DNA of 57,004 nucleotides, from the IMG/VR virus record IMGVR_UViG_3300024999_000122, positions 1 to 57,004 of that record. The stretch is one strand, 5' to 3'. The notes beneath the pieces were generated by a model, which was given only the letters and a program-made list of their open reading frames with translations, searched no databases and was not told the DNA's origin. The position numbers were made by a program, and so were the translations under genes. Below are positions 13,691-34,847 of the stretch, in pieces (the stretch's first letter is position 1; each line of letters begins with the position of its first letter). This DNA is from a virus. Lineage: Duplodnaviria; Caudoviricetes.

Positions 13691-13966
13691 ATGGCAGTAA
13701 ACACACTTTTGGTAAAATCCTATGCGACTAATGTATATCTTACAGGGACGAACTCTTTATCTAATATTGCAGCTACACGACCAGAGTATGTTCAACCAGT
13801 TATGCAACGTGCAGCCGATGCGTTTTACATTGATGACATTGATTACGCTTTATCACAAGGATGGATTACACCACAGGAACACGCCGACACACTGGCATTA
13901 AAAGGACCGGAAGATCCTCAGTATCGTCCGGAATTACTTGTGGCACAGGAAGAAGTTATGTCGTAG
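13691..13966 (+). CDS. Small tail-fibre-associated protein (XkdX-like)
   Basis: 'ALSQGWITPQEH' resembles the XkdX GWIT.E motif; RBS GGAGG. Confidence 0.55.
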   Translation: MAVNTLLVKSYATNVYLTGTNSLSNIAATRPEYVQPVMQRAADAFYIDDIDYALSQGWITPQEHADTLALKGPEDPQYRPELLVAQEEVMS

Positions 13967-13985
13967 TAGACGCATTATGTGACGT
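13958..13985. other. Candidate dif-like tyrosine-recombinase site
   Basis: ATGTCGTAGTA-GACGCA-TTATGTGACGT; 11-6-11 layout with partial match to the Bacillus dif arms as I recall them. Confidence 0.35.
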
Positions 13986-14002
13986 AAGGGTAAACGAAAT
14001 AG

Positions 14003-14047
14003 GAATAAAGAACTATTTACTTCTTTATTCGTCAATGTTAGCATAAT
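14003..14047 (+). promoter_or_regulatory. Promoter/operator of the recombinase gene
   Basis: gaataaagaa-N8-ttctttattc inverted repeat overlapping TTTACT-N17-TAGCAT. Confidence 0.5.
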
Positions 14048-14082
14048 TCTAATTCCGAAATAAAAAGAGGGGGATTAGAATT

Positions 14083-15081
14083 ATGCTATCTACTGCCACG
14101 GGAGACATTTTAAGTAACCAGGTTATGGGGTTAGTGTACTCGTTATATCCTAACATTGACGCTGAATTACTCCAGCTGGGGTTGAGTAGGTTAATTTCCC
14201 AGTATGACGTTAGACCTTCTAAACTGGGGGAAGGTAACCCAGACCTTCATCAGAAAATAACACTGTTCCTGGAAGGTAAAAGGCTGGAGGGTTTAAGCCC
14301 CGTAACCCTAGCTAGTTATCTTATAGAATTGCGTACGTTCTCCAGGTATATCCAGAAGCCAGCGGCAGACATAACGACTACTGATATTAGGTATTTCTTA
14401 AGCCAGTGGGAAAGTCTAAAAACTAGCTCATTATCTAAAAAACTCTCAGTTCTTAAAAGTTTTTTCAGCTGGCTAAATACTGAAGAAATAGTAACCAAAG
14501 ACCCGACACGAAGGATTAAGCCGCCGAAAAAAGAAAAACGCTTACCTAAGAGCCTGTCAGTCGAGGAATTGGAACTACTGAGGGAGGCGTGCAGGACCAG
14601 AAGGGAACGTGCAGTAGTCGAAGTACTGTATTCTACGGGCTGCCGACTATCCGAGGTATTAAACTTAAACAAGGAGGACATAAATTACCAGTCAATGTCT
14701 ACACGGGTAATAGGCAAGGGGAACAAAGAAAGGGAGGTATTTTTCTCTCATAAGGCCCTGTTCCACTTGAAAAAGTATTTTATCCAACGTAAGGACATGA
14801 GCCAGGCGTTATTTTCAACAGAACGCCAGCCCTACGAGCGGCTATCTTCCAGGGGCCTACAAAGGGAGATAAAAGTAATTGCCGCCCGTGCTGGGTTAAC
14901 TAAAAGCGTATACCCTCACATTTTTAGGCATACATTCGCCACAGACTTACTTAATAACGGCGCTGAACTATCGACCGTACAGGCCCTATTAGGGCATGAA
15001 GACCCGGCGACGACGCTAATTTATTGTTCAGTTACCGACGATAAGAAGCGCCAAGCACATAAGCAATATCACGCACAATAG
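14083..15081 (+). CDS. XerC/D-like tyrosine recombinase
   Basis: 'STGCRLSE' (R), 'GKGNKER' (K), 'PHIFRH' (HxxR), 'LGHE..TTLIY' (H,Y); N-terminal SAM-like domain. Confidence 0.95.
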   Translation: MLSTATGDILSNQVMGLVYSLYPNIDAELLQLGLSRLISQYDVRPSKLGEGNPDLHQKITLFLEGKRLEGLSPVTLASYLIELRTFSRYIQKPAADITTTDIRYFLSQWESLKTSSLSKKLSVLKSFFSWLNTEEIVTKDPTRRIKPPKKEKRLPKSLSVEELELLREACRTRRERAVVEVLYSTGCRLSEVLNLNKEDINYQSMSTRVIGKGNKEREVFFSHKALFHLKKYFIQRKDMSQALFSTERQPYERLSSRGLQREIKVIAARAGLTKSVYPHIFRHTFATDLLNNGAELSTVQALLGHEDPATTLIYCSVTDDKKRQAHKQYHAQ

Positions 15082-15087
15082 GTACGT

Positions 15088-15121
15088 AAAAGACCAGGCC
15101 CACAAAGCCGGGTCTTTTATT
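15088..15121 (+). terminator. Intrinsic terminator after recombinase gene
   Basis: aaaagacc.ggc / gcc.ggtctttt stem-loop. Confidence 0.65.
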
Positions 15122-15177
15122 GTGAGCCAGTCCCGCGCCTAACGGGATGAAAGCCGAAAGACGAAGGGGGCGTAAAG

Positions 15178-15561
15178 GTGGCAGGGACAGAGGCAGTAAG
15201 CCTGCAAGTATGCGAGGTAGTAAGGGAAAATACCCAGGCCCAAATAAACGTAAACGTAAAGCGCCTAGACGCCCACAGCCTGGAGATAAAAGAACTGACC
15301 AGGATAGGCGACAGGTTGACCCAGCTTATTGAAATGCAATGTAAGCAGCTTGAAGATAAGACCAAGCAGCTGGAAGAACATAGCCACAGACTTGAAGAAC
15401 TAGAAATCGAAAAGCAGAAGCCCGCCCCTAAAGCTGCCTGGTACGAAACAAGTACGGGCAGCTTCGTAGTTAAGACAGGTATGGTAATTCTGGTCATGGT
15501 AGTAGCAGCAGCCATTGGCCAAAATTATAAGGACGTCCTAGCCACCGTATTCAGTAAGTAA
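15178..15561 (+). CDS. XhlA-like/holin-associated lysis membrane protein
   Basis: Coiled coil followed by one C-terminal transmembrane helix; directly upstream of endolysin. Confidence 0.6.
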   Translation: MAGTEAVSLQVCEVVRENTQAQINVNVKRLDAHSLEIKELTRIGDRLTQLIEMQCKQLEDKTKQLEEHSHRLEELEIEKQKPAPKAAWYETSTGSFVVKTGMVILVMVVAAAIGQNYKDVLATVFSK

Positions 15562-15574
15562 AGGAGGGAATACC

Positions 15575-16366
15575 TTGTATCCAGTAACCGCAAACTATCT
15601 AGCCGTAAACCGTTCCAAGATACCATTAAACCCAGAAGGCGCTATATGTCATTCTACGGCGACGCCGGGAGCCACAGACGAGAATGAATTCACGTTCTAT
15701 AACGGGGCCTACCGCGGGGCTTCGGCTCACGCCTTCATTGACTGGGACAGTATTACCGAAACGATACCCCGGAACGAACGAGCAGGGCACGCAGGGCCTA
15801 CAGCTAACCGTAGGTTTGTAGGCGTTGAGTTATGCGAACCACGCGACGACGACCCAGACCGTTTTAGGAAGTTCACGGAAGTATGGAAACGCGGCGTATG
15901 GTATTTCGCGGACATGTTCATACAGGAAGGCTGGAGCATTGGTGCTCTGCATTCTCACAAATGGGTAAGTGAAACGTACCACGAAACAGACCATACGGAC
16001 CCCTACGAATACTTCCAAAGGTACGGTAAGACGTTCGGCGACTTTAACGACGACGTAGCGGCAGAAATGGAGCGGCTTAAAAACGGGGAGGTAGACGACG
16101 TGTTAGAAGAAGCTATTTTGAAATTCACAAGTGAAGACGAATGGGCGGCCAAAGACGTGGACGCTAAGCGTGGAGGTATCGCAAACTTTACACGTCAGGG
16201 CACCGACAGATCAGTAATACCAGCGGCAGCTTTAAGTGCTAAGAAATTGTATATCATAGGTGGCCCAGACGTACCGACGCACCCGAACCGTATTTACATG
16301 TCTGGTAACGACAAATACGACACGGCCGCAGAAGTGGGGAGGGCCTTGAAAGACGGGCGGGTATAA
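15575..16366 (+). CDS. Endolysin, N-acetylmuramoyl-L-alanine amidase (Amidase_2) with CWB2-like tail
   Basis: 'HSTATPG..ASAH.F..HAG.TAN..GVELCE..H..TDHTDP'; C-terminal 'LYIIGG..MSGNDKYDTA' resembles cell-wall-binding repeat 2. Confidence 0.9.
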   Translation: MYPVTANYLAVNRSKIPLNPEGAICHSTATPGATDENEFTFYNGAYRGASAHAFIDWDSITETIPRNERAGHAGPTANRRFVGVELCEPRDDDPDRFRKFTEVWKRGVWYFADMFIQEGWSIGALHSHKWVSETYHETDHTDPYEYFQRYGKTFGDFNDDVAAEMERLKNGEVDDVLEEAILKFTSEDEWAAKDVDAKRGGIANFTRQGTDRSVIPAAALSAKKLYIIGGPDVPTHPNRIYMSGNDKYDTAAEVGRALKDGRV

Positions 16367-16368
16367 AC

Positions 16369-16557
16369 ATGGACGAACAAACGAAAGACGAAGAAATAGC
16401 GCGCCTTAAGGCTAAAGTAGCCCAGCTGGAAAAAGACCTAGATACTGCTCGCTGCCAGGTTATTGTAGCCGAGCGAATAACCCAGAAAACAAAGGGCCTT
16501 ATGGCCGAATACGAAGGATTCTTTAAGACCATGAAAAAACTACAAGGGGGTGTTTAA
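16369..16557 (+). CDS. Hypothetical coiled-coil protein in lysis cassette
   Basis: 62-aa ORF tightly coupled to both neighbours. Confidence 0.55.
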   Translation: MDEQTKDEEIARLKAKVAQLEKDLDTARCQVIVAERITQKTKGLMAEYEGFFKTMKKLQGGV

Positions 16558-16948
16558 TTTGACTATTTTATTGTTTATACTAGCCTGGCTTAAAATTTAC
16601 TGGCTGGACGTCTTAGTAGCCGCGGTATTCGGGGCTGTAGTTATCTGGCTGCTACGGCGCGGTAAAGTGGACACAGTGAAACAGATCATGCTTTACCTGG
16701 TAATGAGGGCCGAACGTAAACTAGGCAGCGGGACAGGGCCTTTAAAGTACGCATCAGTTATTGCAGGAATATACGAATATATACCCGTTATACTTCGTCT
16801 GATATTCACTAAAGACGAGTTAAGCCAGTATTTAGAAGAAGCCGTAAACAAACTGGAAACAATTTTAAAGGAGCCAGGCACTAACCTACTGACCTACGAA
16901 CAGGAAGCCCCGGCCACACAAGCAAAGAACATACCGAAAGACGAATAA
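16550..16948 (+). CDS. Holin
   Basis: N-terminal hydrophobic helices; 'AERKLGSGTGPLKY...EEAV' resembles LL-H-type holins. Confidence 0.7.
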   Translation: MFNLTILLFILAWLKIYWLDVLVAAVFGAVVIWLLRRGKVDTVKQIMLYLVMRAERKLGSGTGPLKYASVIAGIYEYIPVILRLIFTKDELSQYLEEAVNKLETILKEPGTNLLTYEQEAPATQAKNIPKDE

Positions 16949-16950
16949 CG

Positions 16951-16992
16951 AAAAGAAGACCCTGGGCGTAAAAGCCTGGGGTCTTCTTTTTT
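16951..16992 (+). terminator. Intrinsic (probably bidirectional) terminator ending the lysis cassette
   Basis: aaaagaagaccctgggc / gcctggggtcttcttttt. Confidence 0.85.
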
Positions 16993-17038
16993 GGTTATAA
17001 ATGTAATATACTAACAAAAAAGAACAGGGGGCGACGAC

Positions 17039-17416
17039 GTGGCTAATAAATTAAAGCTGGAACTGGTAACGGGCTACGGTAGTATTACAGGTAAGACCGT
17101 AACACTGAGCAGGGGGAAGAAGACGAAAAGCCTTAAATTTGTAACGGGTATGTTTAACGAAATCCAGGACTACGAAGTAACGGGCCTGGAATGGCAGCAG
17201 AAAGACGAAAGAAGCTTAGGCAAGGGCCTGGGCGGCGGTATTATAGGCGGGTTACTGGCCGGTCCTTTTGGCCTGGCTGCGGGGGCTGCGTTAGGCGGGC
17301 GTAAGAAAGATAAGTCCACAGCTGTAATACGGGTGGACGCCAACGGCCAGGAAGCAGCTATTTACGTGCAATGCGACGCCAGGGAGTACGAAGAACTTAC
17401 CAGGCTGCTAATGTAA
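17039..17416 (+). CDS. Hypothetical protein with glycine-zipper hydrophobic segment
   Basis: 'GKGLGGGIIGGLLAGPFGLAAGAALGG'; stand-alone gene. Confidence 0.65.
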   Translation: MANKLKLELVTGYGSITGKTVTLSRGKKTKSLKFVTGMFNEIQDYEVTGLEWQQKDERSLGKGLGGGIIGGLLAGPFGLAAGAALGGRKKDKSTAVIRVDANGQEAAIYVQCDAREYEELTRLLM

Positions 17417-17454
17417 AAGACTTCCAGCTTTAGAACGACGGGGAGAGGGTCTTA

Positions 17455-17640
17455 CATACATACTATGTATATATACATATAACTAATACTATTATATATA
17501 ATATATATATATTATAGTAGTATATATAATATATAAGGTATGTAATTACTTAGGGGGGTATACTTTTTTAATTTTGGTTTTTAGAAATCAAAGTTAGGGG
17601 GGACTACCCCCCTTCTTATTTTGCGTTCTTATATATTAAT
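17455..17640. repeat. AT-rich hairpin element, copy 1
   Basis: TA-repeat tract; 34 bp (17513-17546) identical to 48300-48333; G6-ACTA-C6 hairpin at 17596-17613. Confidence 0.9.
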
Positions 17641-17646
17641 TTTCAG

Positions 17647-17685
17647 TAAAGAAGTATTGACTTCTTTATATCATTTTAGTAATAT
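17647..17685 (+). promoter_or_regulatory. sigmaA promoter with palindromic operator
   Basis: TTGACT(17657)-N17-TAATAT(17680); taaagaag-N6-cttcttta palindrome over the -35. Confidence 0.75.
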
Positions 17686-17719
17686 AGGGGTATAGAAATT
17701 TACTTAAGGGGGCTTTTAC

Positions 17720-18685
17720 ATGAGAATGACAAGTAAAGCGCGGTTATGCGAGCGGGCTAACAAGATTATCGACGACTTTCAGGTAGTAACTGAACGGCTT
17801 TTTACCCTTCGCGACCAGGGTAAAATTACAGGCGGCTGCCTAATGGTTTACAACTGGAACAACACTTATTACGAAATGCTAAGCAAGGTTGTGTACCCGA
17901 CTTCAAAAGGTTACAAAAATACCACTGAATCAGAAATAGGGGTATTAGTTAAGCTTTACGAAGCTGAACGCGTAAAGGCCCTGGCCTTTGTCGAAGAACA
18001 AGAAGCCGCTACCATGGAAACGTGCCAAAAGGCCCAGGTAGAAGCTGAGCTAGCCGCCACTACCGCCGTAGAAGGTGCGGAAGTTATGACATTCTGCGAA
18101 ATGCACAAGGCTAGCGGCGGCTGTGAAGAGTGCCCTAACCGCTACGTATGCGAGGACAGCCCACTAAAGACCGTGCCCCAGAAGCCCGAAGCAGACGCGG
18201 CCGCCGAAGCCGAAAAGAACAAGGCTAAGAACTTTCTTGTAGGTTACTACGTCGTCAAAGAAGACGAGGTATTTACAGACAACGGTTACGCGTGCGCGGC
18301 CTGGTTTAAGAAAATCCTAGTTAAAGCTGGAAGATACGCCGTAATGGCCGGCCAGTATAGCTACCACGAACGCGACAAGTATTACATGGATAAGCTGGCC
18401 GACCGTTCCCTAAGCGTTAAGCTGCCTGGTACCGTCGTAGCTGCTGACTTCCAGGGGCGCTACTTCGGGAAACCTATAGGCGGTAGCGACGACGCCAGTA
18501 AAAAGTACCTGGGGGAAACGTCTAGCATATGCCTAAGCCCGTACGCCCACGCTACAGCCCTGGCCATACTGGAAGGGACCAGCAGCATAGAACTACTTCC
18601 AGAATTCGAAGCCAGAGAAATACCGTTCGAGTACGAAGGTAAGCCGAACAAGACCTACGGGATATTTAGAAAGGCAGGCGTTTAA
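17720..18685 (+). CDS. Hypothetical early protein
   Basis: 321-aa ORF with RBS; central Cys cluster (CEMHKASGGCEECPNRYVC). Confidence 0.7.
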   Translation: MRMTSKARLCERANKIIDDFQVVTERLFTLRDQGKITGGCLMVYNWNNTYYEMLSKVVYPTSKGYKNTTESEIGVLVKLYEAERVKALAFVEEQEAATMETCQKAQVEAELAATTAVEGAEVMTFCEMHKASGGCEECPNRYVCEDSPLKTVPQKPEADAAAEAEKNKAKNFLVGYYVVKEDEVFTDNGYACAAWFKKILVKAGRYAVMAGQYSYHERDKYYMDKLADRSLSVKLPGTVVAADFQGRYFGKPIGGSDDASKKYLGETSSICLSPYAHATALAILEGTSSIELLPEFEAREIPFEYEGKPNKTYGIFRKAGV

Positions 18686-18686
18686 C

Positions 18687-18875
18687 ATGATTAAGCCTGC
18701 AAGCATTAAAAACGGGGAGCTAGTTACCGAGAAGTACAAGGAACGGGTAAGGCCTTTTAGGAAGCTGGTAGAATGGAACTACCGAGACGTAAACGGCAAT
18801 CTACACGCTGGAGTAGCGCCGTCGCTGGAAGTTGCGGAAGAAAGGGCCGCTAAGCACGGGTACGTTAAGCCATGA
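18687..18875 (+). CDS. Hypothetical protein
   Basis: Coupled ORF in early operon. Confidence 0.6.
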   Translation: MIKPASIKNGELVTEKYKERVRPFRKLVEWNYRDVNGNLHAGVAPSLEVAEERAAKHGYVKP

Positions 18876-19222
18876 AGAAACGTAAGCCGCCTAAGAACAT
18901 GGTTTACTACTCCAGTCAACTTACCCCAGGAGGAACCCAGGTACTACCCGTTAAACCGTTATGGCTTATAGATTTCCCGGAATCCCCAAAGTATAGGTTT
19001 TTCCTTTATCACAGTGAAACCCAGCACGCCTACTTTGTCCTGGAAGTAACTACGGGTATGGGCGTGTCAAGTAATAAACCCGCTACCCAGAAGGACGCCC
19101 TGGAAAAGGCGGCTGCTAACCTAAAGCTATACGCCGCCGACTTCGACAAGATCGTAGCTGACTTTATCAAAAAGCACGGGGCCGCCCCTAGTCCCCATAA
19201 GGAGGAACCAGAACAATGTTAG
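18872..19222 (+). CDS. Hypothetical protein
   Basis: ATGA overlap with upstream ORF. Confidence 0.6.
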   Translation: MKKRKPPKNMVYYSSQLTPGGTQVLPVKPLWLIDFPESPKYRFFLYHSETQHAYFVLEVTTGMGVSSNKPATQKDALEKAAANLKLYAADFDKIVADFIKKHGAAPSPHKEEPEQC

Positions 19223-19533
19223 ACGACCAACTACTAAGGGAGTTTGTGGACCTGGTAAAGGTAGCGGGCAGGGGTACCTTACACCCTGCCCAGGCAGCCA
19301 CGGCAGAAAAACTAGAGCAGGAAATACTTAGGCGTATGGCCTACAAAGTAGAACCCCACGAAGTAAGCCTACGTGTGTACCATATGCGGCACGCTGAACG
19401 ACGTATAGGGGAAATAAGCCTGAGTATAGCTGGCCTGGACAAGAGAATAGCCAAGGAGTACGACGACCTGGTACATGAGATACGACGGCTAGAACACGAA
19501 ATGACCAAGATACTAGAAGGAGGTAAAAGGTAA
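19216..19533 (+). CDS. Hypothetical protein
   Basis: RBS AAGGAGG; helical ORF. Confidence 0.6.
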   Translation: MLDDQLLREFVDLVKVAGRGTLHPAQAATAEKLEQEILRRMAYKVEPHEVSLRVYHMRHAERRIGEISLSIAGLDKRIAKEYDDLVHEIRRLEHEMTKILEGGKR

Positions 19534-19802
19534 TGGCAAAGGGTAAACCAACAAACGGTGCCCCACTTGTAAACCTTAATAGCAAGGTAACCCCAGAAAC
19601 GAAGGCCCTTATAGACGCGCTTATAGGGATAGGCAGCCCTGGTATAGGCAGCGTTCGGGAATTAATCGAAGAAGCCTTAAAGCTGCTGGAGAAGGAACGG
19701 CCCGACGACATGGCCACGGCCCGTAAATTCATGGAACTTTTAGGGTCTACGCAGGATCGGCGGAAGTACAAAGACGGCACCGCTAAAAATATTTTGCAAT
19801 AA
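19533..19802 (+). CDS. Putative ribbon-helix-helix regulator
   Basis: 'VNLNSKVTPETKALIDAL...SVRELIEEALKLL' strand-helix-helix pattern. Confidence 0.6.
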   Translation: MAKGKPTNGAPLVNLNSKVTPETKALIDALIGIGSPGIGSVRELIEEALKLLEKERPDDMATARKFMELLGSTQDRRKYKDGTAKNILQ

Positions 19803-19814
19803 AGCGGCAGACGT

Positions 19815-19844
19815 GCATATTTTAGGGTACCCAGATCATACGCT
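19815..19844 (+). promoter_or_regulatory. sigmaE-like sporulation promoter 1
   Basis: gcATA-N17-CATACGCT; fits the B. subtilis sigmaE consensus ATA-N16-18-CATAcanT. Confidence 0.6.
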
Positions 19845-19849
19845 ATAGC

Positions 19850-19937
19850 GTGAGCGCAGCTAAGCGGTAGCGACCATAAGCAAAGTATACCCAGGGCAAA
19901 AAGCCAGGCGAAGTTAAATACTTCCCTGGCTTTTTTG
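19850..19937 (+). ncRNA. Candidate small RNA (about 90 nt)
   Basis: Lies between the sigmaE-like promoter and a strong terminator; no RBS-led ORF. Confidence 0.35.
19898..19937 (+). terminator. Intrinsic terminator
   Basis: aaaaagccagg.gaagt / acttccctggcttttttg. Confidence 0.8.
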
Positions 19938-19945
19938 TCGTTTAA

Positions 19946-19975
19946 GCATAAAACGGACCCCCAACGCCATAAGAT
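19946..19975 (+). promoter_or_regulatory. sigmaE-like sporulation promoter 2 (drives 20006-24352 operon)
   Basis: gcATA-N17-CATAAGAT about 30 nt upstream of the 20006 start. Confidence 0.6.
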
Positions 19976-20005
19976 GTAATACGACTAAAGGCAGGAGGGG
20001 GTAAG

Positions 20006-20209
20006 GTGGAACGTAAGGTAGTTTATGACGTATCTTTTAAGTTACGACCAGGGCGCGACGACGATATAGCGCAGGCACTAGCCCGAATACCTACATACTT
20101 CGACCGTAGCGACGTACTGAGGGACGCCCTAAGACAATACTACAACCTAGAGGGAACCAGGCCAGAACTTCGGGTTAGCGTGTTATCCAGTATACCAGAG
20201 CGCCTATAA
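20006..20209 (+). CDS. CopG/ribbon-helix-helix regulator
   Basis: 'VSFKLRPGRDDDIAQAL..DRSDVLRDALRQYY'. Confidence 0.7.
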   Translation: MERKVVYDVSFKLRPGRDDDIAQALARIPTYFDRSDVLRDALRQYYNLEGTRPELRVSVLSSIPERL

Positions 20210-20241
20210 ATGGCGTCGCTACGACCACTAAACCCAGCAGC

Positions 20242-20316
20242 CTAGAAGTTAAAAACCGCAGGGGCACCGTAAGCCATCAACGCAATTCCTACCGCTATCT
20301 TTATCAGAGCAGCCAT
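20242..20316 (-). CDS. 24-aa hydrophobic peptide MAALIKIAVGIALMAYGAPAVFNF (not in ORF track)
   Basis: Minus-strand ATG at 20316 with AGAAAGGA RBS 10 nt upstream; single transmembrane-length helix. Confidence 0.6.
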   Translation of the reverse strand: MAALIKIAVGIALMAYGAPAVFNF

Positions 20317-20350
20317 TAGCTACACGTCCTTTCTGTTTAGGTTACGAACT

Positions 20351-20380
20351 TAGTATTAGCTAAAGCCTAGAAGTTTATAC
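20351..20380 (-). promoter_or_regulatory. sigmaF/sigmaG-like forespore promoter for the peptide
   Basis: Minus strand reads GTATA-N15-GCTAATACTA (sigmaF spacing), equivalently GTATA-N18-AATACTA (sigmaG spacing). Confidence 0.5.
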
Positions 20381-20415
20381 ACGGGGTTAGAATTTTATTT
20401 AAAGGGGGTCGTACA

Positions 20416-20871
20416 ATGTTAGTAAAAATTAATGGGATTACACGGACCTACGCCCCGCCCGTAGCCGTGGAGGTTATCGAAGTGCAGGACCTTTCTCTTA
20501 CTACCCTGGGACGTATAAAGCGCCACGTAAGACAGAACTACCGCGCTTATTTAACGGCGGGCTACACATTCGCGCTAATAGCTCACCCTAGCATAGCCTT
20601 AGCAGCTGGAAGCAGCGGTGGCATACGTCTAATACTACTAATGCAGAAAGCTAGTTTCTGGGTAGGAATGGGCGTAACCATATGGGGCATAGTAGAAGCC
20701 CAGCTAGATTACCCAGGCTGGAAAAGTCGTGTACTTAAGGGCGTACTGGGGTATATCGGTATTTTATTGGTGCCCCTGGTATTCCTGGAGCTACAGAACA
20801 GCCTACAGGTAGACGTATGGGGCCAGATCGAAGAAGCCACTAAGAAACCGTTGCCCCTCCAGCCCCAGTAA
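20416..20871 (+). CDS. Membrane protein, TrbC/VirB2 pilin-like layout
   Basis: Basic leader, cleavage-like 'HPSIALAA', then two hydrophobic helices. Confidence 0.5.
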   Translation: MLVKINGITRTYAPPVAVEVIEVQDLSLTTLGRIKRHVRQNYRAYLTAGYTFALIAHPSIALAAGSSGGIRLILLMQKASFWVGMGVTIWGIVEAQLDYPGWKSRVLKGVLGYIGILLVPLVFLELQNSLQVDVWGQIEEATKKPLPLQPQ

Positions 20872-20882
20872 GGGGCGCTACG

Positions 20883-21599
20883 ATGGTAAAGGTTACGTCT
20901 GAATTCGGGGCCATTGACAACATGCACAGTAAACCCCATAGCGGCACAGACATAGCCGTACCGAGTGGTACGCCGATAACTAGCATAGGGTACGGGGTAG
21001 TCGAAAGTACGCCAGACTTTGGGGATGAGAACATAGGTAAGGGCGTCATAGTCAAACAGGCCGACGCTACCGTAACGTATGGGCACTTTTCGGAGGTTAA
21101 AGTAGTCAAGGGGCAGCCAGTAGCCAAGGGTACAGTTCTGGGGTTATCGGGTAGCACGGGCCACAGCAGCGGGCCACATTTACATTTACAAGTAACCCAG
21201 GGCGGGAAGCTGGTAAACCCCGAAAAGTATACCCAGCTAACAGCTGCCGTAGCAGGCCCAGGAGCGCCGCAGCTGCCGAAGCCTGCCGAAGGTATAGACC
21301 TTATGGGGGCGGTAAGCCTGGGCCTGCTGGTAGTCTTAGTATTAGCGTTCGTAGGGGGTAAGCGTATGGTCTTTACGCCTATATCGGTAATAGTAATGGT
21401 AGTAGCCCTGGTATTCTTCGGCCCGTCGCTGTGGCAGGCCACGGGCGCACTGTTTAAGGCGGGCTATTTAGATGTCCCTATGATACTGGCTACGATAGGC
21501 GCCATATGGTTATGGCAATTCGGAGCCAAATTTCCGAAGCGTTTACTGTTCTGGGGCTGGTTAATATTTTGGGCATTAAGGGGGTTGGTATTCGCATGA
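20883..21599 (+). CDS. M23/LytM peptidase with C-terminal multi-pass membrane domain
   Basis: 'HSGTD' (HxxxD), 'YGH', 'GSTGHSSGPHLH' (HxH); about four hydrophobic helices at the C-terminus. Confidence 0.88.
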   Translation: MVKVTSEFGAIDNMHSKPHSGTDIAVPSGTPITSIGYGVVESTPDFGDENIGKGVIVKQADATVTYGHFSEVKVVKGQPVAKGTVLGLSGSTGHSSGPHLHLQVTQGGKLVNPEKYTQLTAAVAGPGAPQLPKPAEGIDLMGAVSLGLLVVLVLAFVGGKRMVFTPISVIVMVVALVFFGPSLWQATGALFKAGYLDVPMILATIGAIWLWQFGAKFPKRLLFWGWLIFWALRGLVFA

Positions 21600-24352
21600 T
21601 CGTAAGAATTAACGGACGGGAAGCCTGGGTAATAGTCACGGAGAAAGTAGCAGAGATTAAAACCGACGTACAGCCACAAAAAGGGCCTTCTAAGCCTTTA
21701 AACCTTAAGACGGCAGTAGAACGTATCAAAGTGGCCGTAAAAGATCAGAAACTAATAGCCTGGCGTCCAGACGACTACGTTACGTATGAACTTACCCCGA
21801 CGTCTAGCGTTAAAAATACCCAGGCTTATGTACTGGCCAAAGTAGTAGCCAGCTTCTACCGCCAGACCGAGGAACTACGGACCTGGGACTTTAGCAGGAA
21901 AACAGCGCTTTTTACCCTTGGTAAGCAATACAGAATTAACTTTAGGGTAGTATTCACGAAGGATACCATACGTTTTTACTTACTCGTACCACGGGCCAGG
22001 GCTGCCGAGATCATGCGTAAGGCCGAAAGCGTCTACCATGAGAACATAACCGTACAGGAGGTAACCGAACCGCTGCCACAGATTGACGTTACACGGGCTT
22101 ACGGGTCCGAACTGACCTACCGAAAGCACGACATATTTAGCCTGGACACGGACAGAGGAAACAGCTACCCGCTGCCCAGCCTATTAACAGCCGTAAGGAC
22201 ATTAGAGGGCGACGACCTGGCCGTATTTGACACGATGCTAGAGCCTACCGACCGTAAGGCCTGGGAGCAGGCAGCGGCCAAGGCCCATAAACAGCTGGAG
22301 AATGGCCAGATACCCAGGCACGGGCTTAAGTTACTACAGAAGGTAGACGAAGTATTTAACGCTTTACGTTGGCAGTTGCTAGAACTGGCAGCGTTTACCC
22401 CACAGCATAAACGGCAGCTTAAGCAGCGCAAGAAGGAGGAAAACAGGTACCAAGAAGTAAAAAGGATAATGGACAATATGACCACTTCCACGAAGCGAAA
22501 AGCCGCTGACGACGTATTAAACACGTGGGTACGGATAGCAGCCCACAGTGATAGTCCAGAACGGGCAAAAAGCGCGGTGAAAACTCTAGCGAACGCCTGG
22601 AAGGACTTAAGTGCTGATAACCAGGTAGACGTCGTGGCTATAACGCCGAAATGGACTGCGTTCTTTATCGAGAGCATAAACAAGCGTAGGGCCTTTAGTA
22701 TTCGTATGCGCCCCTTAAAACTATCTACCGAAGAAGCGGGAAAGTTTATGCAGCTGCCAGGCGACTACCTCATAAACGAATTCCCACAAATACAGTCTAG
22801 GAAGTTTAAAGACGTAAGCGTACCGAAGGAACTAACCCAGGACGACGTAAAAGGCATACGGGTAGGCGTCGTTACTGAACGAGGTACCCGCCAGCTGGTA
22901 AAAATGCCCCTGGAAGCCTACGAAGGGGTAAAGCTTAAAGAAGTCTACGACGCGGTATGTACTGGGACGTTTGGCCAGGGCAAGCAGGGTACTGGTAAAA
23001 CGGAAGGCTTCGGGACCGTCACGGCCTACGACATGATCGTAAACGGCTTTAGTGTCTTGGCCATAGCTACCGACGACGGCGAAGGCCTGCGGAACCTTAT
23101 AAACTCGTTACCCGAAGATTACCCAGACGACAAAATACACGCCCTAAACTTCGACAATAAAGCCTGGCCTATAGCGTGTAACTGGTCAGACATTTACGGC
23201 CGTACCTTTGCCCAAGGCGACGCAGAACTACAAGCGCTGGAAATATCCGAGCGTATAACCGACCGCTTTATACAATTCGTAAACAGCTTAAGTAATACGG
23301 GCGACTTTACCGACCGTATGGCCCAGTACGTCGTTAGCTGTATGCGTGCTATAACCAAAGTAGCAGACTGGTCATTCCTGGACCTAGAACTAGCCCTAAC
23401 ATCCCCAGCGTACCGCGCCGAACTACTCCAGCTGGAGGCGGTTAAGGAAATGCCCGAAGTGGCCCATGATTTACAGACGTTACAGGGTAGGGCAGAAGCA
23501 GGCAAAGACGGCGAAATAGTAAACCCTATCTTAAGCAGGGTAAAGGCCCTGGCTGGTACCCAGTTTATGGCTAACCTGTTTTACCAGGACCCGAAGCGAA
23601 ACGACGACGGCAGCCCCACGTTAGACCTACGGCGTATAATGGATAACCCAGAAGGCAGCTATGGCCACGTCGTCGCAATTTACGCAAGCGGGGACGCGTG
23701 GAACGATAACCAGGCTACAATACTGGGCTTTATGTTAGACAAGATCAATTTTAACGCGTTTAGCCGCGTGGACGTTTCGCAAGATCAGAGAAGGCCAGCC
23801 CTGGTATGGATAGACGAACCCCATAAGGTAATTAAGTCCATGGAAGATAAACTAGCAGGTACCGCCGTGGAATTCCGTAAGTATCGAATAAAGAACCTTT
23901 TCACGGGCCACAGTATCGACCAAATGGGGAAAGCCGCGAACAGTTTGCTAGACGGCGGTGCCCAGGTAATAAGTTACAAGACAGAGCGCCTAAGCGAGTT
24001 TACACGCTTCGCCCATAAGTTCGCCCCGTACGACGACGCGGCAGCCCTATACGAAGCCCTACCCGAAAAGTGGCGGGCTATATGCAGCCTACGTCTACCG
24101 AGCGGTAAAACGTGCCCCGCGTTCCTGGCTGATATGACACCGCCACCTGGTAAGATCAAAGACAGGGCCGAAGCCTGGCAACGATGCGCCGAAAAGTACG
24201 GCAGGCCATGGAAGGAGGTACGGGACGCGATACAGGGTAAACGTGCTAAGTACCAGGCCCTTAACTACGAATGGACAGCCGACAGGAAGGCCGAAGCCCT
24301 GGCAGCGAAAGCCGAAGAAAAGGGATTACTTAAACAGGCTAAAGCCAAGTAA
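21596..24352 (+). CDS. VirD4/TraG/HerA-like P-loop ATPase
   Basis: Walker A GKQGTGKT, Walker B VWIDEPH, 'EFRKY...GHSIDQ' motif; ATG 21596 overlaps upstream stop and follows an RBS. Confidence 0.75.
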   Translation: MIVRINGREAWVIVTEKVAEIKTDVQPQKGPSKPLNLKTAVERIKVAVKDQKLIAWRPDDYVTYELTPTSSVKNTQAYVLAKVVASFYRQTEELRTWDFSRKTALFTLGKQYRINFRVVFTKDTIRFYLLVPRARAAEIMRKAESVYHENITVQEVTEPLPQIDVTRAYGSELTYRKHDIFSLDTDRGNSYPLPSLLTAVRTLEGDDLAVFDTMLEPTDRKAWEQAAAKAHKQLENGQIPRHGLKLLQKVDEVFNALRWQLLELAAFTPQHKRQLKQRKKEENRYQEVKRIMDNMTTSTKRKAADDVLNTWVRIAAHSDSPERAKSAVKTLANAWKDLSADNQVDVVAITPKWTAFFIESINKRRAFSIRMRPLKLSTEEAGKFMQLPGDYLINEFPQIQSRKFKDVSVPKELTQDDVKGIRVGVVTERGTRQLVKMPLEAYEGVKLKEVYDAVCTGTFGQGKQGTGKTEGFGTVTAYDMIVNGFSVLAIATDDGEGLRNLINSLPEDYPDDKIHALNFDNKAWPIACNWSDIYGRTFAQGDAELQALEISERITDRFIQFVNSLSNTGDFTDRMAQYVVSCMRAITKVADWSFLDLELALTSPAYRAELLQLEAVKEMPEVAHDLQTLQGRAEAGKDGEIVNPILSRVKALAGTQFMANLFYQDPKRNDDGSPTLDLRRIMDNPEGSYGHVVAIYASGDAWNDNQATILGFMLDKINFNAFSRVDVSQDQRRPALVWIDEPHKVIKSMEDKLAGTAVEFRKYRIKNLFTGHSIDQMGKAANSLLDGGAQVISYKTERLSEFTRFAHKFAPYDDAAALYEALPEKWRAICSLRLPSGKTCPAFLADMTPPPGKIKDRAEAWQRCAEKYGRPWKEVRDAIQGKRAKYQALNYEWTADRKAEALAAKAEEKGLLKQAKAK

Positions 24353-24388
24353 ATAGTTCTTGACTTCTTTACTAATAGGCGTCAAACT
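24350..24388 (+). promoter_or_regulatory. sigmaA-like promoter sharing TTGACTTCTTTA with the 17647 promoter
   Basis: TTGACT(24360)-N17-CAAACT. Confidence 0.5.
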
Positions 24389-24420
24389 AGGACTATAAGA
24401 AATTTAAGGGGGTATAACCT

Positions 24421-24666
24421 ATGCGCGTATTGATTTTAAAGGGTTGTTACAAGGGGCGCCAAGCGGAAGTAATCGATGAAGGTACTTTTAACGTATTCGG
24501 TAGACAGATCACGGGTATCAAGGTAGACGCGGGATTAGCAGGGCCTTTAGTTTTACAGAAAGACGACTACGAGGAAACAGTGCCCGTAGAAGTAGACCCT
24601 AGATTAGTTGAGTTGTGTATTCCATGGGATAAAGAAGAGGGGGAATATAACGCGTTGCATATGTGA
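24421..24666 (+). CDS. Hypothetical protein with KOW/SH3-like start
   Basis: 'VLILKGCYKGRQAEVID'; own promoter and terminator. Confidence 0.6.
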   Translation: MRVLILKGCYKGRQAEVIDEGTFNVFGRQITGIKVDAGLAGPLVLQKDDYEETVPVEVDPRLVELCIPWDKEEGEYNALHM

Positions 24667-24703
24667 ATGTAGTAACCTAGTAGTAAAATAAGTCGAAACA
24701 AGT

Positions 24704-24729
24704 AAAGGACCCCCAGCGGGTCCTTTTTT
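24704..24729 (+). terminator. Intrinsic terminator
   Basis: aaaggaccc / gggtcctttttt. Confidence 0.8.
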
Positions 24730-24741
24730 ATATTTGAACGC

Positions 24742-24823
24742 AAAAAGGACCCAGGGGGCGCCTGGGTACCAAGTAAATAGGGTATATCGTAATACCACGC
24801 CGAAAGACGAATAACCGCGTAGC
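24742..24823 (-). ncRNA. Candidate minus-strand small RNA (about 80 nt)
   Basis: Minus-strand TTTACA(24858-24853)-N17-TAAACT(24835-24830) promoter and minus-strand terminator acccagg/cctgggtccttttt ending at 24742. Confidence 0.5.
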
Positions 24824-24907
24824 ATCTTTAGTTTAAGGGGATACGTCGCGAATGTAAACATACAAATAATGGAAATAAAAGAAACGCGGCGTAAGGTGAA
24901 AAAGTTA

Positions 24908-24950
24908 TTGACTAATGGAAAATAAGCCCCTATAATAGAAAATAGCCGCG
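24908..24950 (+). promoter_or_regulatory. Strong sigmaA promoter with tandem GAAAATA boxes
   Basis: TTGACT-N17-TATAAT; boxes at 24918 and 24938. Confidence 0.85.
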
Positions 24951-24991
24951 AATACACGCGAGTAAGCGAAAAAAGAAAGGGGGCGGCGAGA

Positions 24992-25117
24992 ATGAAAGCG
25001 GGCATGTTAGTGATAAGGGGCAAGTCTAACGACGTGACTAAACAGCTTAAGGAAATGAAGCCCGAAGACTTCGAAGCGTTAAAGCGCCAGGTACTTACCA
25101 GAAAGGGGCTACAGTAA
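24992..25117 (+). CDS. 41-aa peptide MKAGMLVIRGKSNDVTKQLKEMKPEDFEALKRQVLTRKGLQ (not in ORF track)
   Basis: RBS AAAGGGGG; TAATG overlap with the next gene. Confidence 0.65.
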   Translation: MKAGMLVIRGKSNDVTKQLKEMKPEDFEALKRQVLTRKGLQ

Positions 25118-26694
25118 TGGCCAAGATCGAATACGTTAAAGCCTGGGGCTTATGGTCGCACTTCGAAAGCTACTTTATGCTAAGCCCAAGCCTGACCGTA
25201 GTAACTGGACCCAACGGCAGCGGTAAAAGTAGCCTACTAAGAATCATTAAATGGGTAGCCCTGGGCGAACCAAGCGGGGAAAATTTCATTTTTAAGGTAG
25301 AGGACGAAGACACGAAGGAGGTACTAAAACAGTCCGAAGAAGGACGCGCAGAGATAGGCCTAGACAATGGGGTAGTCATTACCAAGACCAGGCGTAAAGG
25401 TAAGACGACGCACACTATTAGCACGATAGCGGAACCGTTCGAAAAGGCAGAGGTACCCCAGGAGATTAAGGACGCGCTGGGTATCACTAAATACAAGTTC
25501 GGGGACTTCGAAACTTATCTAAACTTCGCCTTCCAGCTGGAAGCGCCGTTTTTACTTTCAGAAAGCCCCAGCGTAGGCGCTAAGGTACTGGGAAAACTAG
25601 CTGGAACCGAAGCGGTGGACCTGGCTATAGGCGAAGCTACCAAGAGGACAAGCAGGACCCAGAAGCTTATTTCTACGGCTAAAAAGGACGTCGTACGGAT
25701 TAACGGCGACTTACTAGAATACCAGGACCTAGACGACCTACAGCAGCAGCTTAAGGCCTGCGAATTCCTTGTAGAAGAACTGGACAATAACGCCAGCAAG
25801 CGCCAGACGTTAGCCGAACTTACGAACCTACTGATACGTTCCAGGGATAGCCTGGAAACCTTGGAAACCGAGCTAGTGAAACTGGCTATAGTCCCAGACC
25901 TGGCGCTAGACCTAAAGAACATTGACCAGGCCCAGCAACGGTACGACGACCTACTAAGTCTATATGGGCAGCTTGACAGCAGCATACAGACCATAGACGA
26001 CCTTGCCGCCCAGCTGGTTAACTTTGAAGGGCTAAACGTCGCCGCGTTACTAATGGACAGCCTAGACGCCATTGAACGACGCCTAAGCACTATTCAAAGT
26101 TTATCCACGGAATTAATAAGTTACACGCAGGCCATTAAGGAAGCCGAGGACTTCCTGGAAACGACGAAGGGCCTGGACGTTGCCGCCTTACTCGTAGACA
26201 GTGCAGAAACTACCGACAGACGCCTAACCACTATTACCAAGTTATCCACTGACCTACTAAGTTATAAGCAGGCCATTAAGGAAGCCGACGACTTTTTACA
26301 GACTACCAAAGACCTGGACGTAGCAGCCGACAACCTGGGACACGTTGAAAAGCACGCCGCACGTATGGACAAGCTGCGGAACCTTTACGGAGAACATACC
26401 ATAGCCAGCAGCCAGGTAACGCGGCTTACGAAGGACATTACGGGCCTGGAAGGGGTAAAGGAAGCCGCCGACCTAGTTACGGCAGCAGGGCTAAGCATAG
26501 GACGCCTGGACACGCTTAGGCAGCTGGGGAGGGAATACACGGTAAAGGCTGACACGGTAATTAGTTCGGTAGCCGAGCTAGGGGCAGCCGTAAAAGCGCA
26601 AGGGTACGCCGAAGACGAACTAAGTAAAGCCTGGGAAGCGGCGGGGGGTAAATGCCCGCTATGTGACCAGGCAGTAGATACTCATAGCCATTAA
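25117..26694 (+). CDS. SbcC/Rad50-like ATPase, N-terminal half ending at the zinc hook
   Basis: Walker A 'GPNGSGKSS', Q-loop 'FAFQ', long coiled coil, terminal CPLC; no Walker B. Confidence 0.85.
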   Translation: MAKIEYVKAWGLWSHFESYFMLSPSLTVVTGPNGSGKSSLLRIIKWVALGEPSGENFIFKVEDEDTKEVLKQSEEGRAEIGLDNGVVITKTRRKGKTTHTISTIAEPFEKAEVPQEIKDALGITKYKFGDFETYLNFAFQLEAPFLLSESPSVGAKVLGKLAGTEAVDLAIGEATKRTSRTQKLISTAKKDVVRINGDLLEYQDLDDLQQQLKACEFLVEELDNNASKRQTLAELTNLLIRSRDSLETLETELVKLAIVPDLALDLKNIDQAQQRYDDLLSLYGQLDSSIQTIDDLAAQLVNFEGLNVAALLMDSLDAIERRLSTIQSLSTELISYTQAIKEAEDFLETTKGLDVAALLVDSAETTDRRLTTITKLSTDLLSYKQAIKEADDFLQTTKDLDVAADNLGHVEKHAARMDKLRNLYGEHTIASSQVTRLTKDITGLEGVKEAADLVTAAGLSIGRLDTLRQLGREYTVKADTVISSVAELGAAVKAQGYAEDELSKAWEAAGGKCPLCDQAVDTHSH

Positions 26695-34528: not shown

Positions 34529-34535
34529 CAATTTA

Positions 34536-34598
34536 TTGACGTATGCAGAATAGCAACGTATAATAGAAAATAAGCGCGATTAGTGGAAAATAAGCGCA
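34536..34598 (+). promoter_or_regulatory. Strong sigmaA promoter with tandem GAAAATAAGCGC boxes
   Basis: TTGACG-N17-TATAAT; boxes at 34566 and 34586. Confidence 0.85.
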
Positions 34599-34616: not shown

Positions 34617-34847
34617 ATGTCAGAACAGGACAAGCTTAAGTCTTTGGAAAAGGGGCTACAGAACTACCCGCCAGTATTAACGCCTGACCAGGTAGCGGAC
34701 ATACTGGGGGTAAGCCGTAGAACAGTGGACGACTACATTAAGGCCGACGTAATTAAAGCCTTCCCGCTGGACCCTTCCAAAGCACGTAAACAGTACCGAG
34801 TAACCAAGGCCGAACTAATGGCCTATGTCACGAACAAAGGGAACTAA
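34617..34847 (+). CDS. Excisionase-like winged helix-turn-helix protein
   Basis: 'VLTPDQVADILGVSRRTVDDYIK..IKA..YRVTKAEL'. Confidence 0.85.
   Translation: MSEQDKLKSLEKGLQNYPPVLTPDQVADILGVSRRTVDDYIKADVIKAFPLDPSKARKQYRVTKAELMAYVTNKGN

Follow-up and report, generated by a model that had tools for sequence, protein, structure and literature searches.

Does a short intergenic segment of a Bacillus-type phage genome specify a small RNA that acts on the lysis genes of the same phage? The segment, 24742-24858, lies in a window that comprises an entire virus record of 57,004 bp (IMG/VR record IMGVR_UViG_3300024999_000122; completeness estimate: complete), in which the + strand carries every long open reading frame (ORF). 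A sequence-only reading of this window had proposed that a trans-acting RNA, read from the minus strand of the segment, delays expression of the lysis genes. From its predicted anatomy, the segment was best explained as a putative lineage-specific, moron-like non-coding transcription unit. The reading that we favour, tentatively, is that this unit would yield a small RNA, specific to this lineage, which would bind lysis-cassette mRNA in trans by base pairing and restrain expression of the cassette, and to this we add a rationale involving the integrase gene upstream of the cassette.

The candidate minus-strand RNA gene

The predicted RNA is 79-82 nucleotides (nt) long and would run from ~24823 to 24742 on the minus strand, within the intergenic region 24667-24991. 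It lies between T1, the terminator of the upstream operon, and the early + strand promoter of the exonuclease/replication module, and overlaps no + strand gene (Table 1). The sequence-only reading had described a minus-strand promoter (TTTACA-N17-TAAACT) and a minus-strand terminator that bracket about 80 non-coding nt. All three elements were recovered as described: the promoter scored 9/12, the terminator was present, and no ORF preceded by a ribosome site was found in the bracketed ~80 nt between them. The terminator, T2, has a GC-rich stem of 9 pairs, allowing a one-base bulge, followed by U5; its folding energy was -14.4 kcal/mol, which none of 200 shuffles equalled. The T-tract of T2 is present on the minus strand only, and T2 faces T1. 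The early + strand promoter, a strong one, is located 50 bases to the right of the minus promoter and points in the opposite direction; the two diverge from a common AT-rich upstream region. Among the six relatives compared, which were five long IMG/VR records (G001-G005) and Bacillus phage vB_BboS-125 (BboS-125), the early promoter was conserved in G001 and G004.

The first base of the 5' hairpin is the predicted transcription start, seven bases beyond the -10 element. The stability of this hairpin was strand-specific: the minus-strand RNA folded with -9.4 kcal/mol, a value equalled by 8 of 200 shuffles, whereas the + strand gave -2.4 kcal/mol (88 of 200). The seed motif is located inside the 12-nt loop, where the unpaired probability was mostly >0.9. 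We judge the chance that a discrete minus-strand RNA is made to be slightly better than even.

Other kinds of product were also considered. A small minus-strand protein was rejected, as it would have no ribosome site and the reading frames run through both terminators. No small hydrophobic toxin ORF was found within or adjoining 24667-24991, and a search of the window for transfer RNA and transfer-messenger RNA genes gave no match. Rfam gave 0 matches at the gathering score for the whole window; in E-value mode, 24600-25000 gave two hits (E 0.58 and 0.95), both far under their gathering scores.

Motif copies and the lysis cassette

The 11-mer CGAAAGACGAA occurs exactly four times in the genome, at 15155, 16382, 16935 and 24801. 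Since every copy lies on the + strand, complementarity to the motif requires an RNA of the opposite, minus strand. The three matches that the sequence-only reading had placed in the lysis cassette were exact, with lengths of 13, 11 and 16 nt, and stood relative to the genes where it had put them. The 9-mer that it had noted at the capsid ribosome site (905-913) was also present; in all, the 9-mer AAAGACGAA has six copies, one of which, at 17201, it had missed. Two of the three target matches (the 15153 and 16382 sites) fall in translation-initiation regions. The second (16382-16392) is also the left edge of the homology with G001, and the third lies just 5' of the cassette terminator.

A genome-wide duplex scan with the seed only ranked the 16934 site first (-26.4 kcal/mol) and the 15153 site second (-24.3 kcal/mol), and the region at rank four, 16457-16526, also belonged to the lysis cassette. 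Duplexes of the full-length RNA with 50-nt windows gave no discrimination, with long loop-rich duplexes dominating, and the same was found for target-flank duplexes. The four exact copies of the 11-mer outnumbered its three one-mismatch copies, a pattern more in keeping with exact pairing, or with copying, than with a degenerate site for a protein. The motif showed no dyad symmetry, no conserved flanks and no flanking homology at any copy. An attachment-site (attP) or arm-site array for the integrase was rejected, because the copies span 1.8 kb with one more 8 kb distant, and a promoter element was rejected, because no conserved flank stands at a fixed spacing from the motif.

The label lysis cassette is fair, since the gene at 15575-16366 is an endolysin. 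The holin is another matter. The sequence-only reading had put the third match at the holin stop, and the match does end on the stop codon of ORF16550; the holin identity itself did not stand beyond a guess from position, since ORF15178 and ORF16550 match no named family. The integrase and the cassette are separated by a weak terminator only (15096-15115), and no + strand sigma-A-like promoter was found at 13900-17216. No cI-like repressor was found in the window by a Pfam scan of 20 ORFs and a tblastn search with three repressor proteins; the sole helix-turn-helix protein among these 20 ORFs is encoded at 34617-34847 (HTH_17). ORF16369 matched the coiled-coil tail of the 486-amino-acid (aa) endolysin of G001 (L034 1300-1503); the catalytic part was thus exchanged here and the tail left as a separate ORF. 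Left of ~16390, G001 shares no similarity with the window. A search for Pfam Amidase_2 in the relatives gave no matches and was uninformative.

How the RNA might act can be set out as follows. It would be made early in infection or in the lysogen, and its 12-nt loop would pair in trans with the cassette mRNA at three places. A 13-bp duplex abutting the ribosome site of ORF15178 would block ribosome loading, an 11-bp duplex would cover codons 5-8 of ORF16369, and a 16-bp duplex over the last gene's stop codon, just ahead of the cassette terminator, might lead to cleavage. Overall, the lysis genes would stay silent until late transcription outruns the RNA. The integrase offers a speculative reason for such an arrangement. 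It stands directly upstream, with only a weak terminator in between, and the lysis genes lack a promoter of their own; early or lysogenic integrase transcription could therefore read through into them, and the RNA may have become useful once the integrase was inserted there. The fuller idea is that the constitutive ~80-nt RNA of a temperate phage serves as a trans safety catch on the lysis cassette, gained or kept with the integrase, and so solves the conflict between early integrase and late lysis expression; we regard this as possible and somewhat doubtful.

Table 1. Features of the candidate RNA gene, its proposed targets and the neighbouring genes
Feature	Position	Strand	Description
Sigma-A-like promoter	24858..24830	-	-35 TTTACA (24858..24853), 17-nt spacer, -10 TAAACT (24835..24830); 9/12
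5' hairpin	24823..24794	-	30 nt; 7-bp stem with two G-U pairs, one inner pair, 12-nt loop
Seed	24799..24815	-	+ strand is GCCGAAAGACGAATAAC; RNA loop holds the complement
AU-rich single-stranded linker	24771..24793	-	23 nt; unpaired probability 0.77 to 1.0
Intrinsic terminator T2	24742..24770	-	ACCCAGGCGCCCCCTGGGT then CCTTTTTGCG at 24767..24749
Proposed target 1	15153-15165	+	GCCGAAAGACGAA; 13-nt match; abuts GGGGG ribosome site of GTG 15178
Proposed target 2	16382-16392	+	CGAAAGACGAA; 11-nt match; codons 5-8 (T-K-D-E) of ORF16369
Proposed target 3	16934-16949	+	CCGAAAGACGAATAAC; 16-nt match; last four codons (P-K-D-E) and TAA stop of ORF16550
Terminator T1 of upstream operon	24704..24736	+	Stem resembles the same-position stem in BboS-125
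Early promoter, exonuclease/replication module	24908..24936	+	TTGACT-17-TATAAT, 11/12; second copy ~34530-34582
Tyrosine integrase	14083..15081	+	Between tail genes and lysis cassette
ORF15178 (first cassette gene)	15178..15561	+	127 aa; coiled-coil-like region, C-terminal hydrophobic stretch; no family match
Endolysin	15575..16366	+	Amidase-type PHROGs
ORF16369	16369..16557	+	62-aa coiled-coil ORF; homologous to C-terminal tail of the longer endolysin of G001
ORF16550	16550..16948	+	132-aa predicted membrane-anchored protein at holin position; PHROG 15303 (function unknown), no Pfam

Chance, relatives and rival explanations

The sequence-only reading had called the matches non-random, and the genome-wide controls supported this in part. 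Under dinucleotide shuffling the expected copy number of the 11-mer was 0.03, and 0 of 100 shuffles reached 4. However, this null is too lenient for the present genome: the number of different 11-mers with four or more copies is 11, where codon shuffling gives 0.3 and periodic Markov models give 0.9-3.7. A clustered triple was defined as three matches that lie within 1.8 kb of one another and reach 11, 13 and 16 nt or more; of 11,353 windows of 117 nt, 65 had one. These windows merged to 3 loci, two of which are the copies of a true AT-rich repeat and the third the present locus. One or more such loci appeared in 3/60, 2/60 and 6/60 simulated genomes (Markov order 2, 3 and 4), the real genome being richer in repeats than these simulations. 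What stood of the claim is the clustered triple, which has no counterpart except at one true repeat pair; what told against it is that short repeats are common here and the dinucleotide null is lenient. Equal frequency of the k-mer elsewhere, which the sequence-only reading had said would refute its proposal, was not seen: the genome-wide count was the four copies of the 11-mer. A scan of both strands for a promoter-like site with a compact terminator 30-150 nt on returned a single promoter-terminator bracket in the genome, this one. One by one these signals are weak. Their conjunction is stronger, because the sole bracket and the sole non-repeat clustered triple fall on the same 30 nt, displayed in a loop.

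Short exact same-strand repeats were several times more frequent across the whole window than under codon-shuffle or periodic-Markov nulls; 115 11-mers occurred at least 3 times, compared with 13-60 under these nulls.

The closest named phage is BboS-125, with a capsid protein 69% and an exonuclease 36% identical and a shared gene order, and more relatives were found in IMG/VR, with capsids 60-81% identical to that of the window phage. The exonuclease adjoining the locus is 67% identical at the protein level in G001 and 42-49% in G002-G005; with at most 67% identity there, the relatives are distant, so the absence of seed and targets from them is uninformative. Attempts to find closer ones gave little. 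A nucleotide search of named phages with 24300-25300 gave no match, and the exonuclease query found no close relative among viral contigs or genome contigs. A query with a 948-aa protein of the window phage found one relative of 57% in viral contigs and one of 59% in metagenome contigs, both too distant for comparing non-coding DNA. The block with this protein is common to the window phage, G001, G004 and BboS-125, and G002, G003 and G005 are without it. In G001 the homologue matched as three pieces (G001:49495-50770), two of them with an internal TAG, and the gene there may be broken or recoded.

A DNA search of the relatives with the locus recovered the promoter part only. In G001 only ~57 nt separate the terminator from the conserved promoter, and this relative has neither the integrase nor the RNA segment nor the target copies. 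The integrase (14083-15081) also had no match in G003 or G004. The equivalent region of BboS-125 has a terminator and then a + strand promoter, with no minus-strand feature, and G004 showed only two 9/12 promoter-like hits at this position and no minus-strand promoter-terminator unit. The 11-mer was absent from G001, G002, G004 and G005 and had one copy in G003. The exact seed had 0 matches both in viral contigs (18-nt pattern) and in genome contigs (22-nt pattern), and the early-promoter pattern found G001 alone in viral contigs. In BboS-125 the motif has no second copy, and the lysis cassette of that phage took only 2 of the 28 short matches of the equivalent intergenic region, with no clustering. 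In the temperate relatives G002, G003 and G005 the site next to the early + strand promoter, on its upstream side, is occupied by a repressor gene (cI/LexA-like or XRE) read from the minus strand, with cro-like genes to the right of this gene; minus promoter-like sites stand beside the + strand promoter in G002 and G003 (10/12 each), and none adjoins it in G005. Contigs of four DNA runs, aligned over 14000-26000, were free of variants, indels and joints at the locus.

The end of the holin gene of BboS-125 (L003, NC_048735.1; 9447-9461) is the same 15 nt, CGAAAGACGAATAAC, as window 16935-16949, and none of the three lysis-cassette proteins compared between the two phages can be aligned.

How far can coincidence account for the locus? 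By this explanation, the promoter hexamers, the hairpin and the 11-16-mer repeats would have arisen by chance, or from the composition of a purine-rich genome whose genes all lie on one strand, and no functional relation would link an RNA to the targets. We consider it doubtful in itself, and nearly as likely as the trans-acting RNA. Several observations weigh against the RNA. All thresholds were set post hoc, on data already seen. Promoter-like sites scoring 9/12 were no more frequent than in shuffled sequence (9 in 16 kb, with 15.1 expected), and at least one bracket arose in 15 of 40 simulated genomes (37.5%; mean 0.45 per genome). The genome holds 18, 173 and 1377 same-strand repeat pairs of at least 16, 13 and 11 nt, besides the 11-mers repeated at least four times; by a rough count from these densities, ~0.4 loci with a clustered triple would be expected per genome. 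Matches of 11 nt or more elsewhere number 5 for the median 117-nt window, as they do for the present one, and the endolysin gene of the cassette is matched over 13 nt by sequence just beyond the RNA (24881-24893) as well. At the level of moderate duplex sites (-18 kcal/mol), shuffled seeds found 84.9 and the real seed 53. All three coding copies of AAAGACGAA are in-frame lysine-aspartate-glutamate (KDE) codons, and four of the seven KDE tripeptides of the proteome lie in three adjacent small genes (16369-17416), so the clustering of the targets may have a coding-level cause. The 15-mer CGAAAGACGAATAAC has 38 exact matches in IMG/VR, many of which close unrelated ORFs in ..KDE, a holin gene being among them only in BboS-125. 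The ~120-bp segment was absent from all six relatives, all of them distant, and the four sequencing runs that contain the phage are all DNA runs from one groundwater-metagenome study. Against coincidence, the sole bracket coincides with the sole non-repeat clustered triple, the hairpin that displays the motif is stable only as minus-strand RNA, and exact copies exceed one-mismatch copies by 4 to 3; NCG-AAA-GAC-GAA would be expected in frame only 0.08 times, and non-coding DNA has another two copies. The earlier proposal of a trans-acting RNA that delays lysis was supported in part: the predicted anatomy suits a small-RNA gene better than the sequence-only reading could tell, with the seed in a loop and the two top-ranked duplex sites in the cassette. 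The four KDE tripeptides in 16369-17416 all use AAA for lysine, AAG being commoner genome-wide.

The transcript could also be real and have another role, as a divergent by-product of the early-promoter region, stopped by T2 short of running antisense into the upstream operon, as the relic of a divergent repressor unit like those of the temperate relatives, or as an RNA against host transcripts, with the lysis matches incidental. This is unlikely. The minus-strand repressor genes of three of the six relatives (G002, G003 and G005) stand at the same position, T1 and T2 are opposed in the manner of convergent units, and operator-like repeats GGAAA(A)TAA lie between and around both promoters (~24869, 24917 and 24938). 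However, a vestige of a cI switch fits by position and not by sequence: in tblastn with the three repressor proteins, the best E-value was 0.32 for the intergenic region and 0.70 for the whole window. The relatives that carry the 948-aa block have no minus-strand promoter-terminator unit there, and the loop-displayed seed and the two top-ranked lysis sites would be left unexplained. Still less likely is an origin at the DNA level, in which the motif copies are footprints of module exchange (linker or microhomology joints, or gene-end copies) and the copy at 24800 is another scar with no RNA function. The homology with G001 starts right after the second copy, at ~16390; the third copy closes a C-terminal extension that is missing in G001; the copies border two sub-modules of the cassette; the holin of BboS-125 shares its 15-nt end with ORF16550, with which it cannot be aligned; and, in comparison with G001, the integrase, the catalytic part of the endolysin and the 120-bp segment have each been gained or lost. 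Yet no flanking homology was seen, the linker was not found in G001, G002, G004 or G005, the motif does not have the dyad symmetry normally seen in a recombinase core site, and the promoter, the terminator and the strand-specific hairpin around the 24800 copy would go unexplained. The alternative that the sequence-only reading had itself offered, a shared binding site, in DNA or + strand RNA, for a phage regulator of late or lysis genes, fared worst and is very improbable. Every copy is on the + strand, and in two of six cases the 9-mer is followed closely by the ribosome site of a late gene (capsid, 905; ORF15178, 15157). However, four exact copies were accompanied by only three one-mismatch variants, the motif is asymmetric and its flanks are not conserved, three copies lie inside coding frames as KDE, the copy at 24801 stands behind T1, where little + strand RNA would be expected, and the motif is missing in four of the five IMG/VR relatives. 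If the unit is not real, the locus shows that promoter, terminator and seed coincidences arise easily in a genome coded on one strand.

Some further features of the genome were recorded. The early promoter (TTATTGAC...TATAATAGAAAATA) occurs twice in the window (24902-24954 and 34530-34590), twice in G001 (G001:52193-52278 and G001:8141-8243) and also at G004:19198-19234. It carries operator-like direct repeats, (T/A)GRAAAATAAGC, ~21 nt apart, with a weaker copy at 24869-24880, and its second copy in the window precedes the HTH_17 protein gene (34617-34847). The AT-rich element has two copies (17440-17620 and 48240-48400) with exact blocks of 34 and 18 nt and the hairpin TAGGGGGGACTACCCCCC at its end. 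One copy is just upstream of a 321-aa gene at the position of the BboS-125 'partition protein', and a centromere, an origin and a promoter are possible identities of the element. The two ends of the record (4-129 and 56879-57004) carry an exact direct repeat of 126 nt; it resembles the overlapping ends of a genome that is circular or terminally redundant, though the record is classed as linear.

Comparison with known systems

Lysis timing is usually explained by late transcription and a holin clock. The candidate has three of the marks of a trans-encoded small RNA, namely a same-strand intrinsic terminator, no coding capacity and an accessible seed for sites at or near a translation start; the overlap with a target on the opposite strand that defines a cis-antisense RNA was not found in 24667-24991. 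Among known systems, the candidate would work most like lambda OOP, P22 sar, P1 c4 and the type I antitoxin RNAs. Lambda OOP RNA is ~77-80 nt long, has its own constitutive promoter and an intrinsic terminator, and is antisense to an early operon in the control region of a temperate phage. The candidate is similar in length, has its own predicted promoter and intrinsic terminator, and would be transcribed against an early operon from within the control region. However, OOP overlaps the 3' end of cII in cis, whereas the candidate overlaps no + strand gene and its proposed targets are 8-10 kb away.

In P22 sar and P1 c4 the complementarity is displayed in a loop; c4 has more than one matching site and is processed from the same strand as its targets. 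The complementary sequence of the candidate is also displayed in a loop and also has multiple sites. In contrast, sar and c4 act on antirepressor or immunity genes, and the proposed targets here are lysis genes; and unlike c4, the candidate could pair only from the opposite strand, the motif copies being direct repeats. In the review PMC12197685, sar and c4 are described as short phage RNAs that block translation of a phage gene. The same review describes PAK_P4as15 of Pseudomonas phage PAK_P4, a cis-antisense RNA of ~550 nt at the endolysin gene, which is proposed to repress translation and delay lysis and is absent from a closely related phage (PMC12197685). The candidate resembles it in its proposed repression of lysis genes and in its absence from relatives, but would be ~80 nt long and trans-encoded, with short seeds at several sites. 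According to this review, the phage RNAs that touch lysis genes have so far been cis-antisense RNAs with proposed rather than proven roles (PMC12197685). A literature search found no trans-acting phage RNA that targets the lysis cassette of its own phage. If the favoured reading is true, the locus would be a compact, testable case of RNA-level lysis control in a phage of Gram-positive bacteria, and would show a phage tolerating a module insertion that joins early- and late-needed genes on one transcript.

The type I antitoxins of Bacillus prophages (SR4/bsrG, RatA/txpA) are constitutive RNAs that silence the mRNA of a membrane-damaging protein, and pairing at the 3' end is a known mode. These pairs overlap convergently over tens of bases, whereas the candidate would pair over 11-16 nt in trans with ordinary lysis-cassette genes. 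If real, the candidate is not a member of the OOP, sar, c4, PAK_P4as15 or type I antitoxin families, since it lacks their defining cis-overlap; it would instead apply a logic like that of the type I antitoxins, in trans, to a whole lysis operon.

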